A stretch of 60,894 nucleotides of DNA from Escherichia phage P13374. Positions 18,001-24,000 of this stretch are shown here, one piece after another. Numbering within the stretch: the stretch's first letter is position 1; every line of letters begins with the position of its first letter. The DNA is taken from sequence record NC_018846.1; one strand, given 5' to 3'. Position numbers: made by a program.

Positions 18001-21000
18001 GTGGCGCAGAGTGCAATCAGTAAAGCGCTTCTCGTCGGACGAGAAATATACGTCAAAACCTTTGATGACGGCACAGTTGAGGCGGAAGAGGTTCGTCCGT
18101 TCCCTGCGTTCGTAAGAGGCGATGATTAATCCTGGACACACAGCCCATCGGAGGTGTGAGTGAACAGGCAAATCAAAACGGTTATGCCCGAGCAGTACTG
18201 TGATGCTGATCGGGACTGGATACAGGAGCAATTGTTACAGCTAGACCCGACCACCCGGGTAAAAATTGCAGCAGAGTACGCGAGAGTGTACCAGGAAGAG
18301 TGGGACAAGGAGCCTGTATCGTTCAGGAAGGGCAACAGGGCAAGACGGAGCGCCAACACCCGGTTACGGGTGTATGTCCAGAAGTACGCGAGAGCCAGCC
18401 GTGGCTGGATGCTTTCGCCAGTAGCGGTACGGAAGTTTCCCCCGACACCATGATGGCGGTTAGTTGCGCTAGAGATAATTTCAAGTGCAACTAATTTCCT
18501 GAAAGGAAGCGAGGAGGGGGTAAGGGGGTGGAGTCGTTGGTAAGGCCTGTATCCCTTGGCCTAGGCCAGAAGGCAGGTACATAGGTTAGGTAGATCACTG
18601 TATAAGCGCGCGATAGTTTCTGGTGAAATGATTATCGAGCTAACTATTGAGTGATAAACTATGTCGGCAGCAACCAAATCGGCACTGATCCGTACACTGA
18701 GCACTGTACCACTGAGAACAGAGGAGCGTTACAGCTTTCTGGCTGATGTTGTAACGATCCTTGAGTCACAGGGGATGCATGTGGCAAGCAATGTCACAGT
18801 AAGAATCGATGGCAGAAATTTCCGTGTTGATATTCTCGCAACAGCAAAAACTGGTGGGAGTGTGGCTATCGAGATCGATCGTAGCTCTCCGCGACCCCGC
18901 TCAGTCATGAAATTGCGTGAATTGGCACGTCGTGGCACTGAAGGCTTTGTGTTGCTTCGAATGCCAAAGAAACTGACCAGTTATAGCGATGCTGGGATCG
19001 ATATCATCCCGGCGAATGGCAAGGGGGCGTCATGCTGAAAATCACCCCAAACTTTGCTCAGGAGCGCGGTTTAAACCAGCTGCGGCACCAGTGGAAACAG
19101 CATCGCACGTACCTGATGTATGCACCCACTGGCTCTGGCAAAACTGGTCTTGCAGCATTCGTCACTGCCGGAATGGTTGAACGTGGTATGCGGGTGATGT
19201 TTGTCTGTCCGTACACCATCCTGCTGAACCAGACAGCGGAACGTTTCACCGAATACGGTTTGCCGTGGGAAGAAATCAGTTTTGTATGGCGTGATCACCC
19301 TAACTATGACCCGTCACGACTGATTCAGATTGCCAGTGCCGACACGCTGATCCGTCGTGAGTTTCCTGACAACATCGATCTGCTGATCATCGATGAAGCA
19401 CACATGAAGCGTCGTGCGTTACTTGAGGTTATCCGGGACAAAGATATCAGGGTTCTTGGGCTTTCCGGCACCCCGTTCGCAGCCTGGATGGGGAAGTACT
19501 ACGAATGCCTGATCAAGCCTACAACGATTCGTGAACTTATTCAGCGTGGTGATCTGAGCGATTATGAGTTTTTTGCCCCCTCAATGCCTGATCTGGCTGG
19601 CGTAAAAACCAGTAACACCGTATTTGGACGGGATTACAACGAGGAACAGCTCGCATCCATCATGGGGAGTTCGGATCTGGTTGGCGATATCGTCAGCAAC
19701 TGGCTTGAGAATGGCGAGGATTTACCGACGATCTGCTTCTGCGTGAATGTGGCTCATGCGAACTTTGTTACCCGTGAGTTTTTACAGTCTGGCATTGGCG
19801 CAGAGGTGATGACGGCAGATACCCCCCATGATGAACGACAGGACATCATTCGCCGTTTTGAAGAGGGTGCGACCAAAATAATTGTCAACGTTGGCGTACT
19901 GGTTGCGGGATTTGACAGCGATGTTCGCTGCCTGATCTACGCCCGTCCGACCAAATCAGAAATCCGCTGGTTGCAGTGCATCGGGAGAGCGTTACGTACT
20001 GCGTCTGGTAAAAAACGCGCATTGATTTTCGACCATTCCGGCACGGTTCATCGGCTGGGCTTCCCCGAGGATATCGAGTATGACGAACTTCCGGGAAAAA
20101 ATGACGGAATGAAAGCGTCTGCTGGCGGGAGTGAGGTTAAGGCTGAGAAACTTCCCAGGGAATGCCCCAAATGCCACTTCATGAAGCCTGCTGGCGTGCA
20201 TATGTGTCCCAAATGTGGATTTCGTCCTCTTGGTGGTGATGACGTGGCGACAGATCGCGATCGTAAGCTTTCACGCGTCAACAAAGGGAAACGCGAATAC
20301 ACCCGTGAGGAAAAACAGCGTTGGTGGAGCGAGATCAAGGGGTATCAGAATTACCGCAACGCGACAGGTAAGCCACTGAGTGACGGATGGTGTGCTCATA
20401 CCTACAAGGAGAAGTTCGGGGTTTGGCCTAAAGGCTTCAGTAATGCGCCGCTGCAAACCTCAGTTGAAGTGTACAACTTCATCAAGTCAAAGACCATTGC
20501 CTATGCCAAAGGGCGCAAGAAAGCCATGACAGGAGGCCAGCATGCGAACTAGAGATGCAGCCGTGGGGCACTGGAGCCGGATTTTTGAATATTACGGCAT
20601 GCCTCCTGTTACTGGTGTGAAACATTACAACGGACCCTGCCCGATATGTGGTGCCAGAGGTAAATTTCGCTGTGATGATAAGGATGGTTCCGGTTCATGG
20701 ATTTGCGTCTGTGGTCACGGGGACGGGATGAATCTGTTGCAACTTGCCACGGGTAAGCCCTGGGTGACGTTGTGTGATGAAATCGATCGGCTGATCGGAA
20801 ATACCTGGAAGAGGGAGAAAGTCAGCCAGCCTGTAACAGAGATAAGCAGAAAGCGGGAGCTGGTCATAGATAAGTTTGCCGGACTCCCGTGTCTGCGGGG
20901 TACAACAGGTGAGGCGTACCTGCAGGGGAGGGGAATACTCCAGTTACCGACCGAATCCGTGCGTTTTTGTGACCGTCAGATCGCCAGCGGGCGCGAATAT

Positions 21001-24000
21001 CAGGCAATTTACGCCATTGCAACAGATGACAAAGGTTCTCTTTGCTATCTGCATCGTACGTTGCTGGATGGTGATCGCAAGGCGAATGTAGAGGCGGCTA
21101 AAAAAATGACCGCGCTACAGGAGTTGCCTGGTTTGCAGCATGCCAAATCGGTGGCAATACGCCTGTATCCGGTGTCGTCCACTCTGGGGATAGCCGAGGG
21201 TATCGAAACTGCGCTTTCATGCCGTCAAATCTTCCGCTGCAATGTGTGGTCAACAATGAACTCCGGTTTTATGGAGAAGTTCATTGCGCCACCTGGCGTT
21301 AATCACCTGATTATCTTTGCTGACAATGATGCGCACGGCGCAGGTCTGGCGGCTGCCTTTAAATGTGGGCATAAGAATCTCATGAGTTGCAATGACGTTG
21401 AGAAAGTCAGCATTCGCTGGCCTGACTTGCCGGATTTTAACGACATGCTCATTCAGGGGTGTGAAGCCCGTGAACATGTGTTGACGCGCAAATTCAAAGC
21501 GGAGGCTGCCTGATGGAAATAGAGATGATCAAGGCGGCTAATGGCGTATTTGTACCGGCGTATGAGCGCGATTTACCCCGACTGGCAAAATTTAAAAACG
21601 GTGAGCTGTATACACTGGAAGCAAAACTTACCCGTAACCCATCTTTTCACCGGAAGATGTTCGCTTTTCTTAATTTCTGCTTTCAGTACTGGTGCGCTGA
21701 ACATGCTGGATACGAATTCTCTGATGAAGCGACGCAGTTTGATGAGTTTCGTAAAAATCTGACAATTCTTGCCGGGTTCTATGATGTGGTCACAACCATA
21801 AGAGGCGAGGTGAGATATCGGGCAAAAAGCCTGAGTTACGCGAATATGGATCAGGATGAGTTTGAACGTTGCTACAACGCAATGATTAATGCCGCGTTAA
21901 AACATGTGTTCGGGCGCTCAAACAATCCTGAACTGAATAACCGCCTGCTGTCGTTTTTCTGAGGTGATGATGAAGCAACGTAAACCAAAAAAATGCAAAG
22001 TGTGCGGCTCCTCGTTTGTGCCGTTCCGCTCATATCAGAAAGTTTGCTGTGGTCAGTGCGCACTGGAACTGGTCAGAAAAGAAAAGGCGATAGCTTCAGC
22101 AAAAGAGCAGGCAGACAAGCTGAAAGCGCGCAGGAGGGACTTACAGCCCCGCAGTTACTGGATTAAGCAGGCACAACAGGCTGTGAATGCTTATATCAGG
22201 GAGCGGGACCGTCATTTGCCGTGTGTTTCATGCGGGACGTTCGATTCAGCCCAGTGGGATGCAGGCCATTACCGTACAACAGCTGCGGCACCTCAGCTCA
22301 GATTTGATGAACGCAATATCCATAAGCAATGCGTGGTGTGTAACCAGTACAAAAGCGGAAATCTCGTTCCGTATCGTGTCGAACTGATTAACCGCATCGG
22401 GCAGGAAGCAGTAGACGAAATCGAATCAAACCATAGTCGCCACCGCTGGACTGTCGAAGAGTGCAAGGCGATCAAGGCAGAGTATCAACAGAAACTTAAA
22501 GACCTGCGAAACAGCAGAAGTGAGGCCGCATGACGTTCACCGTAAAAACCATTCCTGACATGCTTGTTGAGGCATATGGAAATCAGACCGAAGTGGCCCG
22601 AATACTGAACTGCAATCGTGCCACAGTCAGAAAATACATTGGCGATAAAGAAGGGAAAAGACACGCTATCGTCAACGGTGTTCTTATGGTTCACCGCGGA
22701 TGGGGTAAAGATACTGATGCGTGATATCCGGCAGGTTCTTGAGCGCTGGGGGGCATGGGCGGCAAATAACCATGAGGATGTTACATGGTCGCCCATTGCT
22801 GCCGGATTTAAGAGGCTGATCCCCGAAAAAGTAAAATCACGTCCACAGTGTTGTGACGATGACGCGATGATTATATGCGGGTGTATGGCTCGCCTTAACA
22901 GGAACAACAGCGATCTGCATGACTTGCTGGTTGATTATTACGTGTTGGGGGAGACGTTCATGGCGCTGGCACGGAAACATGGGTGCTCTGACACCTGTAT
23001 AGGTAAACGCCTTCACAAAGCGGAGGGGATTGTTGAAGGCATGCTGATGATGCTGGGAGTGAGGCTTGAGATGGATCGGTATGTTGAGCGTGAATTGCCG
23101 GGAGGGAGAACCTCTGTATTTTATCAGCGAAAAAATAGTTTACGATCGTAAAAATCTGCATATCATGATAAGAGTGGTTACATTGCCACGCTGCTTAACC
23201 CGCCGATGCGCGGGTTTTTTGTACCCAGAATCCTGTGAGCTATACGGAAAGTACACAGAAAGGAAGGTGCGACCACAATTAATAACAAAATCTTAAAAAT
23301 CGCACATGGCACTATTAGTTTTCTAAATATTGTGTATTTTTTGTATTGCAGGATGACCCTGTAACGAAGTTTGCGTAACAGCATTTTGCTCTACGAGTTT
23401 GCCAGCCTCCCCCAGTGGCTGGCTTTTTTATGTCCGTAGCGTCAAAGCAGCAATGTCGCTGGGGCGTCGTGCAATTGGCGTTGAGCTGGAGACTGAACGT
23501 TTTGAGCAGACGGTCAGGGAAGTTCAGGATTTAGTCAGTCAGAACGGATGATATTGCAGGATTAGTTACGTACCGTTATTATCCTGCGCCCGGCCCTTTA
23601 GCTCAGTGGTGAGAGCGAGCGACTCATAATCGCCAGGTCGCTGGTTCAAATCCAGCAAGGGCCACCATATCACATACCGCCATTAGCTCATCGGGACAGA
23701 GCGCCAGCCTTCGAAGCTGGCTGCGCGGGGTTCGAGTCCTCGATGGCGGTCCATTATCTGCATTATGCGTTGTTAGCTCAGCCGGACAGAGCAATTGCCT
23801 TCTGAGCAATCGGTCACTGGTTCGAATCCAGTACAACGCGCCATATTTATTTACCAGGCTCGCTTTTGCGGGCCTTTTTTATATCTGCGCCGGGTCTGGT
23901 GCTGATTACTTCAGCCAAAAGGAACACCTGTATATGAAGTGTATATTATTTAAATGGGTACTGTGCCTGTTACTGGGTTTTTCTTCGGTATCCTATTCCC

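Follow-up and report, generated by a model that had tools for sequence, protein, structure and literature searches.

How does a phage copy its genome when lambda's genes for replication are missing from their usual place? We address this question for Escherichia phage P13374 (NC_018846.1), the complete 60,894-nucleotide stretch of which is referred to as the window. Where lambda carries cII, O, and P, the window carries an open reading frame (ORF) for a 97-aa protein, a 207-bp spacer, a gene for a 125-aa protein, a superfamily 2 (SF2) DEAH helicase gene, and a zinc-ribbon/Toprim primase gene (Table 1). An original prediction took this region for a helicase/primase replication module, the spacer with its palindrome and G-rich run for a candidate origin, and the 125-aa protein for a possible initiator or loader. 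All features that it named (the ORFs, the spacer, the palindrome, the G-run, the protein motifs, and the translational coupling) are present where it placed them. The region is an already published unit, the non-lambda replication module of the Eru1 type carried by a Stx2a phage. From comparison with related modules, we consider the chances about even that a conserved non-coding element in the spacer is the origin or replicator of this module.

The identity of the module can be read directly from alignment. Positions 17000-22600 of the window (5.6 kb) are 100% identical to the Stx2a phages P13803, P13771, phiON-2011, and TL-2011c (NC_019442). Llarena et al. 2021 named EHEC phage replication unit 1 (Eru1) in phage TL-2011c and, in the passages that define the unit, assigned the helicase eru1A, the Toprim protein eru1B, and the DUF1367 protein eru1C to replication by their lambda O/P position and their domain content (PMC8044961). 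Eru1 phages share more than 80% identity and coverage in these three genes, located between cI and stx; the window has them at 100% identity to NC_019442, in the same gene order and with the same repressor, and in the window they lie at 19032-20552 (eru1A), 20542-21513 (eru1B), and 21513-21962 (eru1C). The replication module predicted for the lambda cII-O-P position is thereby borne out by position and homology, being identical to published Eru1 (PMC8044961). Pfam finds no lambda O or P match among the ORFs in 17117-22533, and the annotation of the deposited record HG792102 shows no other replication genes in its first 30 kb. The layout obtained from ORF and Pfam scans agrees with the deposited annotations. 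Among 5,426 complete E. coli genomes, 147 carry the Eru1 unit, every time in the chromosome.

Fagerlund et al. 2022 widened the typing to Eru1-13, as stated in the relevant part of that paper (PMC8951638). Neither an origin of replication nor iterons turn up in term searches of the text of PMC8044961 and PMC8951638, and neither the 125-aa gene (gp29) nor the 97-aa ORF appears in the Eru1 gene table or related passages of these papers. A literature search found no later functional work on Eru1 genes. The present analysis leaves the identity of the module unchanged and narrows the open question to the targets described below.

Comparison with relatives places the 97-aa gene in the core of the module. 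The ORF has a GTG start with GGAGGT 5 nt upstream, and its product is basic (pI 10.07). The protein matches phrog_852, a family of unknown function, over its full length (E=2.5e-44), and 43 homologs with 46-80% identity occur in Salmonella, Serratia, Yersinia, Kosakonia, Atlantibacter, and others. We compared 31 loci from at least 15 genera, comprising five genomic contexts and 26 loci from a scan of a genome collection. The helicase gene lies directly downstream of the 97-aa homolog on the same strand in 30 of the 31 loci, with 59-80% helicase identity to the window, and the primase gene is also present in 29; L023 ends inside the helicase gene. In the sole exception, L019:1008-2693 (Citrobacter sp.), the 97-aa gene abuts tail-fibre-like genes; this marks the locus as a prophage remnant with a deletion. 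The linkage of the three genes is independent of the repressor or cro type on the left, and Vibrio phage 1.233.B has the same gene order in its deposited annotation. Judged by this conservation, the 97-aa gene is real and is the invariant third gene of the module, a constant partner of helicase and primase that has been overlooked so far. As a stand-in for cII it does not hold up: no homology to CII is seen, and no other gene accompanies the helicase and the primase as faithfully.

Residues N59, R62, A65, N66, T67, R68, L69, and R70 are invariant in the alignment of 97-aa homologs and define the motif NRARxxANTRLR. An AlphaFold2 (AF2) model with a predicted local distance difference test (pLDDT) score of 74.8 comprises three long helices (residues 15-25, 30-50, and 54-80) and no helix-turn-helix (HTH). 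There is no Pfam match at E up to 0.1, Phage_CII and HTH families included, and no NCBIfam match. The annotation of the gene is inconsistent, being 'CII transcriptional activator' in PV189405 (phage vB_EcoP_phi349), absent in RefSeq TL-2011c (NC_019442), and hypothetical in current RefSeq E. coli records; we found no support for the PV189405 label. A 12-nt exact repeat inside the gene, AGTACGCGAGAG (18275-18286 and 18383-18394), was considered as a DNA site and rejected, being confined to the window and missing from the homologs in Salmonella and other relatives; it is probably not a binding site. A 10-mer pair (18252 and 18357) lies near these repeats, which encode YAR peptide motifs.

The module also occurs in records deposited as plasmids. 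L039 (NZ_CP076549, 37,368 bp), 'plasmid p5' of K. pneumoniae, is the entire genome of a temperate phage, integrase included, and this unit provides its only replication-type genes. Therefore, the module is the sole replication machinery present, and plasmid maintenance is not implied. PLSDB contains several 37-42 kb non-mobilizable 'plasmids' with the module (Klebsiella, Morganella, and Enterobacter), which may be excised prophages or phage-plasmids. We rejected them as proof of plasmid replication, the inspected one being a temperate phage.

The spacer contains a non-coding element that is more conserved than the genes beside it. Its G-tract is the highest G4Hunter peak in the window. Compared with the window, the G-core averages 94% identity (30 loci) and a downstream box 90%, against 58% in the DNA of the flanking 97-aa gene and 67% in that of the 5' region of the helicase gene. 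The box, CATAGGTTAGGTAGAT, recurs with at most two mismatches in 24 of the 31 loci, always within the gap between the flanking genes (chance ~8e-5 per spacer), and follows the G-core in a fixed range of 43-52 nt; it is unique in the window, all other matches being at chance level. Further downstream, a TTTCTGG(T)GAAA block forms the right arm of an inverted repeat (18475-18493 and 18614-18632) that flanks the core. The G-rich run exceeds chance, and the core is conserved across genera.

The reverse test gives the same linkage. Viral contigs scanned for the pattern G-core-N25-55-box yielded 83 contigs with the element, 80 of which were analysed. A 97-aa homolog lies upstream in all 74 contigs with room for it, and a helicase gene lies downstream in all 74 with room on that side. 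Of 91 unique spacers, 89 have a GATC next to the box, 78 have a TTCCTGGAA-like block after it, and 45 have palindromic GTAY-N10-RTAC sites on both sides of the core. As we read the aligned variants, these sites have constant ends and inner positions that vary without compensating changes. The universal core (G-tract, box, and GATC) is conserved as sequence, with no double-sided change in any pair. Sequence conservation, a Dam site, and non-covarying palindromic flanks are signs that the core may act at the DNA level. Across different immunity regions, and as far out as Gilliamella and Vibrio, divergence of the 97-aa gene and the element goes along with that of the helicase and the primase; on these comparative grounds we count the element as part of the replication module rather than of the immunity region. 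In Serratia L009 and in L013, both of which have RepL-like slot genes as well, the G-tract/box element is degenerate or absent.

The palindrome for which the spacer was originally singled out is incidental. The window has 12 perfect 12-bp palindromes, compared with ~15 expected (14.9 under a uniform model; 15.0 +/- 4.5 in Markov shuffles), and the chance of one inside the 207-bp spacer is ~0.05. Spacer alignments, of six genera first, show that TGGCCTAGGCCA is not conserved in related modules, including loci with the 125-aa family. In this segment each lineage has a dyad of its own, GTGCCYGTAAGGGCAC in the sister lineage and GGAATAG..CTTTTCC in the majority. Chance frequency and lack of conservation led us to reject the palindrome as a signal. 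The proposal of the spacer as a candidate origin thus loses the palindrome as its basis and keeps the conserved G-tract and box that travel with the module, as well as the iterons found at this position in a Vibrio relative.

The proposed GC-skew and repeat analysis of the spacer found neither a skew switch nor a repeat family. The GC content is at least 0.44 throughout, and the skew peak merely mirrors the G-run. Positions 18454-18660 hold no direct-repeat family, and 17800-22000 only scattered two- or three-copy matches of the kind expected by chance, unlike the repeat arrays of iteron-type origins. A consensus scan found no promoter on either spacer strand and no + strand terminator in 17700-19200. 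The scan gave a single promoter-like site, at 17873, and neither another such site nor a terminator lies between it and the G-tract.

Other readings of the spacer sequence were tried as well. A small ORF over the G-tract was rejected: some relatives have 56-60-aa ORFs there, and the window has no such ORF on the + strand. These ORFs are unlikely to be real, because the gaps in the aligned spacers there are, by our reading, not multiples of three. A nutR site was rejected for want of an N-like protein and a nutL-like copy; comparison of the spacer with the leftward operon gave only weak matches (79% or less) and no nutL-like copy of any spacer motif.

In related modules, the 97-aa stop is directly followed by one or two hairpins with 5-bp stems and a conserved 8-nt TTRAAGGY loop. 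Such loops are flanked by paired stems in 99 of 106 cases, with 19 distinct covarying stems, and some G-T wobbles pair only on the + strand; in a separate analysis, four of five stem pairs show compensatory changes. A variant with a GNRA loop in one lineage keeps G-U pairing. From its pattern of variation, the TTRAAGGY hairpin looks like a protein-binding RNA hairpin. The window spacer has no TTRAAGGY hairpin. It folds somewhat better than shuffled sequence (z = -2.6), as does the - strand (z = -2.2). A search of Rfam gave no match, neither for the spacer nor for the full-length elements from four relatives.

The corresponding gap of Vibrio phage 1.233.B (L040), between the 97-aa homolog and a RepL-like gene, has another architecture. 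An AT-rich stretch is followed there by three copies of a 17-nt, internally palindromic repeat, the arrangement that characterizes iteron-type origins (at least three repeats and an AT-rich stretch). By its sequence, this gap, which corresponds to the window spacer, is laid out like a classic origin or operator of the iteron type.

The 125-aa protein does not have the properties expected of an initiator or loader. It belongs to phrog_1347, a family with a narrow distribution at high identity; in an exhaustive search the family is thin, with members of ~100-145 aa. Its fold is PD-(D/E)xK, with the restriction-endonuclease-like alpha-beta-beta-beta-alpha-beta core. Residues D57, E71, D73, R78, S81, and K84 are invariant. 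They form the motif D...ExD...K, with the lysine on the following helix, instead of the canonical D...(D/E)xK. No Pfam family scores above threshold, with one faint match, to REase_MTES_1575 (E=0.037), and no initiator or loader domain (winged-HTH Rep/RepL, DnaA, DnaC/IstB AAA+, or lambda P) is found in Pfam, NCBIfam, or PHROGs. The profile searches that had been proposed for the 97-aa and 125-aa proteins place both in families (phrog_852 and phrog_1347) and return no initiator or loader domain for the latter.

The gene slot upstream of the helicase is variable. By tblastn, the 125-aa family is present in 7 of the 31 loci (two partial matches), and 26 of the 74 viral contigs with the element contain it. 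No gene occupies the slot in ~20 of the 31 loci. Elsewhere it holds a gene for an HNH/NUMOD4 homing-type endonuclease (Yersinia, L006:6618-7274) or for a RepL/HTH_36 winged-helix protein (Serratia, L009:6614-7159), and RepL-like genes occur also in L013 and in the Vibrio phage. The slot genes of Yersinia L006 and Serratia L009 overlap the helicase start by 7-8 nt, like the 125-aa gene of the window. The slot seems to be a gene-insertion hotspot. Slot genes (96-218 aa) sit between the element and the helicase gene with the module intact, so the element needs no fixed distance to the helicase start. Distant members of the 125-aa family lie in phage early regions beside YqaJ, RecT, and RusA genes, with no helicase or primase nearby, and from these contexts we rejected the family as a dedicated helicase partner. 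The nuclease fold, the variable and usually empty slot, and the distant contexts argue that the 125-aa gene is an accessory gene with a predicted nuclease fold, and not a core initiator or loader.

The helicase has Walker A (APTGSGKT at residue 31), DEAH at 121, SGT at 145, and a C-terminal zinc ribbon (CPKC-N10-CPKC at 378/392). Pfam ResIII, DEAD, and Helicase_C all score above their cutoffs, and Walker A, motif II, motif III, and the C-terminal domain assign the protein to SF2. Its best match among solved structures is RadD (E=5.7e-17), which is also its best match in NCBIfam (E=4.5e-26). It is not a RadD ortholog, because it scores 91 bits and the RadD family cutoff is 720. The primase has Zn_Ribbon_Prim (55.1 bits, cutoff 23), Toprim_3 (42.1, cutoff 27.2), and DUF7146, with the residues CPIC33/CVC55, EGIE219, and DND261 of zinc-ribbon/Toprim primases of the DnaG and P4-alpha type. 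The genes are tightly joined: the 125-aa stop and the helicase start overlap in ATGCTGA, the helicase and primase genes overlap in ATGCGAACTAG, and the primase and next genes overlap in TGATG. We infer that this helicase is the replicative helicase of the phage.

The third published gene appears to lie outside the conserved core. The eru1C product matches Pfam DUF1367 and phrog_319, the NinB/Orf recombination mediators (E=3e-62). Among the 31 loci, a NinB-like homolog follows the primase gene in the window and Salmonella L003 only. Because it is absent after the primase gene in nearly all relatives, eru1C is probably a recombination gene of the nin region and not part of the replication core.

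We propose the following model, in which the spacer element would be the origin or replicator. The conserved core consists, in fixed order, of the gene for the basic three-helix 97-aa protein, a non-coding element of ~200-400 bp, the SF2 DEAH helicase gene, and the zinc-ribbon/Toprim primase gene. The module is transcribed rightward, apparently from the promoter on the cro side, as one translationally coupled operon. The universal parts of the element are the non-template G-tract, ~45 nt downstream of it the CATAGGTTAGGTAGAT box with GATC, and the TTCCTGGAA-like block, flanked by lineage-specific dyads. Transcription through the element, binding of a module protein, or both would open the DNA. 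The 97-aa protein and the C-terminal region of the helicase are the candidate binders. The phage helicase and primase would then begin synthesis, with no recruitment of host DnaB of the lambda O/P type. Both the function of the element as origin and the choice of binder are what we infer from comparison. The model narrows the candidate origin to a ~120-bp element (18511-18632) and makes the 97-aa gene a candidate specificity factor, the 125-aa gene and eru1C being probably dispensable.

A more specific version concerns Eru1-type phages and many Enterobacterales prophages together. They might use a transcription-activated origin without a classical initiator, at which a transcript across G5-6-TAA-G5-6 would open the DNA through an R-loop or G-quadruplex, and the 97-aa protein would bind the hairpins or the box and license the RadD-like helicase and the Toprim primase. 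We hold this full scheme to be improbable, although the window does have the sequence arrangement of an R-loop origin: the non-template strand of a transcribed region carries a G-rich tract, and no terminator lies between promoter and tract. If the scheme were true, replication would be coupled directly to early-promoter de-repression, and this could help to explain the instability and high toxin output of Eru1 lysogens. Such lysogens are described, in the part of the Eru1 paper concerned with stability, as far less stable than lambdoid ones, and the instability is linked to toxin output (PMC8044961).

Several observations weigh against the spacer element as an origin. The case for it is wholly comparative. 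In 17800-22000, iterons, an AT-rich unwinding block, and a sign change in GC skew are all missing. Parts of the spacer in relatives behave as folded + strand RNA, with covarying stems, wobble pairs, and the GNRA variant; a regulatory leader would account for this behaviour no less well than an origin. The nearest solved relatives of the helicase (RadD, XPB, and UvsW) are SF2 enzymes of the repair type and not known replicative helicases. The predicted fold of the 97-aa protein contains no recognisable DNA-binding unit and matches no protein of known function, with no hit in PDB and only unnamed family members in BFVD. The 97-aa gene is kept even where a RepL-like protein is present, so the 97-aa protein may not be the initiator. 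In lambdoid phages cII, too, tends to travel with the replication genes, and linkage alone is therefore compatible with a regulatory role.

These observations bear most on the reading that the element is a transcribed regulatory leader that would control how strongly the helicase and the primase are expressed, be it by RNA structure, attenuation, processing, or a bound protein, for which the arginine-rich 97-aa protein is one possibility. The origin would then have another location, such as within the helicase or primase genes or downstream of them. We doubt this reading but grant it a real chance. The element lies inside the operon, with no promoter or terminator consensus between it and the cro promoter. 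The stems of the TTRAAGGY hairpins covary and in part pair on the + strand only, the GNRA-loop variant keeps its G-U pairing, RNAalifold pairs the G-tract with CCTTTTCC, the window spacer folds somewhat better than shuffled sequence, and the invariant NRARxxANTRLR helix is rich in arginine. However, the covarying hairpins are missing from the window, and the universal core shows sequence conservation and no paired changes. The slot genes between the element and the helicase make cis control of helicase translation unlikely. In addition, Rfam has no match, the - strand folds nearly as well as the + strand, and the Vibrio relative has iterons and an AT-rich stretch in place of the element. The leader and origin readings need not exclude each other, as a transcript-activated origin would use both RNA structure and DNA sites.

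Two further readings replace the roles of the flanking proteins. If the 97-aa protein were a CII analogue, a lysis-lysogeny activator, and the spacer carried its target promoter or operators, neither would be replicative. The gene does follow cro directly, in the lambda cII position, its product is small and basic, dyad-symmetric sites flank the core, and PV189405 carries the CII label, for which we found no support. This reading is nevertheless quite unlikely given that the protein has no Phage_CII or HTH match in Pfam and is modelled as three long helices with no helix-turn-helix, neither spacer strand has a promoter consensus, and gene and element co-diverge with the helicase and the primase across immunity regions; homologs of N, CII, and CIII are, moreover, reported missing in Eru1 phages in the corresponding passage of PMC8044961. 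The reading of the original prediction, which takes the 125-aa protein for the initiator or the helicase loader and the spacer palindrome for its site of action, we regard as very improbable. The gene is translationally coupled to the helicase gene, and the same slot holds RepL-like winged-helix proteins, which resemble initiators, in L009, L013, and the Vibrio phage. Yet the family is found in a minority of the loci and contigs, most slots are empty, that of Yersinia encodes a homing-type endonuclease, distant members sit beside YqaJ, RecT, and RusA genes and not beside helicases, the protein has no initiator or loader domain, and the palindrome is at chance level and unconserved even in loci with the 125-aa family.

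Among known systems, Eru1 is the closest. The sequence is identical to that of Eru1 in TL-2011c, whose published unit is, in the defining passages, three genes delimited by position (PMC8044961 and PMC8951638). Conservation instead puts the 97-aa gene and the spacer element in the core and eru1C outside it. As with lambda cII-O-P and ori-lambda, the module lies in the early rightward operon after cro, and its replication genes are under repressor control. In contrast to lambda, there are no O or P homologs, no intragenic iterons, and no AT-rich block, the 97-aa protein is not a CII homolog, and the phage carries its own helicase and primase. Lambda recruits host DnaB and DnaG. Phage helicase-primase modules with a non-coding origin close by, such as the Sfi21 type in the classification of Weigel and Seitz, and RepA/RepB'/RepC of RSF1010 are similar to the window in combining a self-contained helicase and primase with a small third protein and a compact site that acts in cis. 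They differ in that the window helicase is RadD-like SF2 and not superfamily 4 (SF4), the primase is of the zinc-ribbon/Toprim type, and the element has a G-tract and a single box and no iterons.

In sequence arrangement, the G-tract resembles transcription-primed or R-loop origins such as ColE1 RNA II, T4 oriF/oriG, and the G-run of mitochondrial CSBII. It shares with them a conserved G5-6 TAA G5-6 run on the non-template strand of a transcribed region near replication genes. The window element differs in having the extra conserved box, GATC, and dyads, for which those systems have no counterpart. Compared with the PD-(D/E)xK superfamily (AF1548, NucS, Hjc, VRR-NUC, and Bax1), the 125-aa protein is very small and single-domain, with a non-canonical motif. 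The helicase shares the SF2 core and zinc ribbon with E. coli RadD (YejH) and archaeal XPB; unlike these repair enzymes, it is coupled to a primase in a phage replication operon.

Table 1 Features of the window and of the related loci discussed in the text
Feature	Position	Strand	Basis or remark
ORF6N (KilA-N-like) domain protein; HG792102 label 'antitermination'	12271-12945	-	not an N-type antiterminator
Rha/Ash family protein; label 'regulatory protein'	13201-13986	-	neighbour of ORF6N gene
Restriction endonuclease and DNA methyltransferase gene pair	14603-17022	-	directly left of cI
15-nt inverted repeat TTTGACATCCTCCAC / GTGAAGGATGTCAAA	17063-17103	n/a	93% complementary arms, 11 nt between
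CI-type S24 repressor (HTH_3 + Peptidase_S24)	17117-17830	-	Pfam; annotated cI / LexA family regulator
Promoter-like site	17873-17901	+	consensus scan; adjoins cro
Cro (PF09048)	17890-18129	+	Pfam E=4.8e-34
97-aa ORF	18160-18453	+	ORF scan, phrog_852
Spacer, 207 bp	18454-18660	n/a	between 97-aa and 125-aa ORFs
Imperfect hairpin, arms TTAGTTGCGCTAGAGAT / ATTTCAAGTGCAACTAA	18460-18494	+	just after 97-aa stop; position of relatives' TTRAAGGY hairpins
G-tract GAGGAGGGGGTAAGGGGGTGGAG	18511-18533	+ (non-template)	G4Hunter, anchored alignments
G-core GGGGGTAAGGGGG	18516-18528	+	alignment of loci
Perfect palindrome TGGCCTAGGCCA	18557-18568		chance-frequency, lineage-specific
Conserved box CATAGGTTAGGTAGAT	18580-18595	+	recurs across loci; GATC at 18593-18596
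TTTCTGG(T)GAAA block (TTCCTGGAA in relatives)	18614-18632	+	alignments
125-aa ORF	18661-19038	+	ORF scan, phrog_1347
SF2 DEAH helicase (Eru1A)	19032-20552	+	Pfam, motifs
Zinc-ribbon/DUF7146/Toprim primase (Eru1B)	20542-21513	+	Pfam, motifs
DUF1367 / NinB-Orf-like gene (Eru1C)	21513-21962	+	Pfam DUF1367; phrog_319
NinG, NinH, Q, three tRNAs, stx2AB	downstream of eru1C	+	annotation
Three tRNA genes	23592-23840	+	directly upstream of stx2A/stx2B
stx2A, stx2B	23934-25174	+	ORF scan
TTRAAGGY hairpins	L017:3298-3339; L010:6307-6348; L006:6330-6348	+	relatives only
Vibrio phage 1.233.B gap, L040 (MG592598)	5350-5606	n/a	AT-rich stretch, then 3 copies of 17-nt internally palindromic ACGACAGAACCTGTCGC

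The wider setting is that of a Stx phage. TL-2011c-type Stx2a phages are the phage type of the O104:H4 (2011) and O103:H25 (2006) outbreaks, and this phage type carries stx2a in these outbreak strains. The CI-type repressor gene forms the left edge of the rightward early operon. The deposited records start cro later than our scan does, at 17902 in HG792102 and at 17926 in RefSeq TL-2011c. The arrangement of tRNA genes before stx2A/stx2B is the usual one in Stx phages. On the left, the restriction-modification pair opens the leftward early operon, where lambda has N. The inverted repeat at 17063-17103 lies between the methyltransferase start and the cI end and could be a terminator or an operator.

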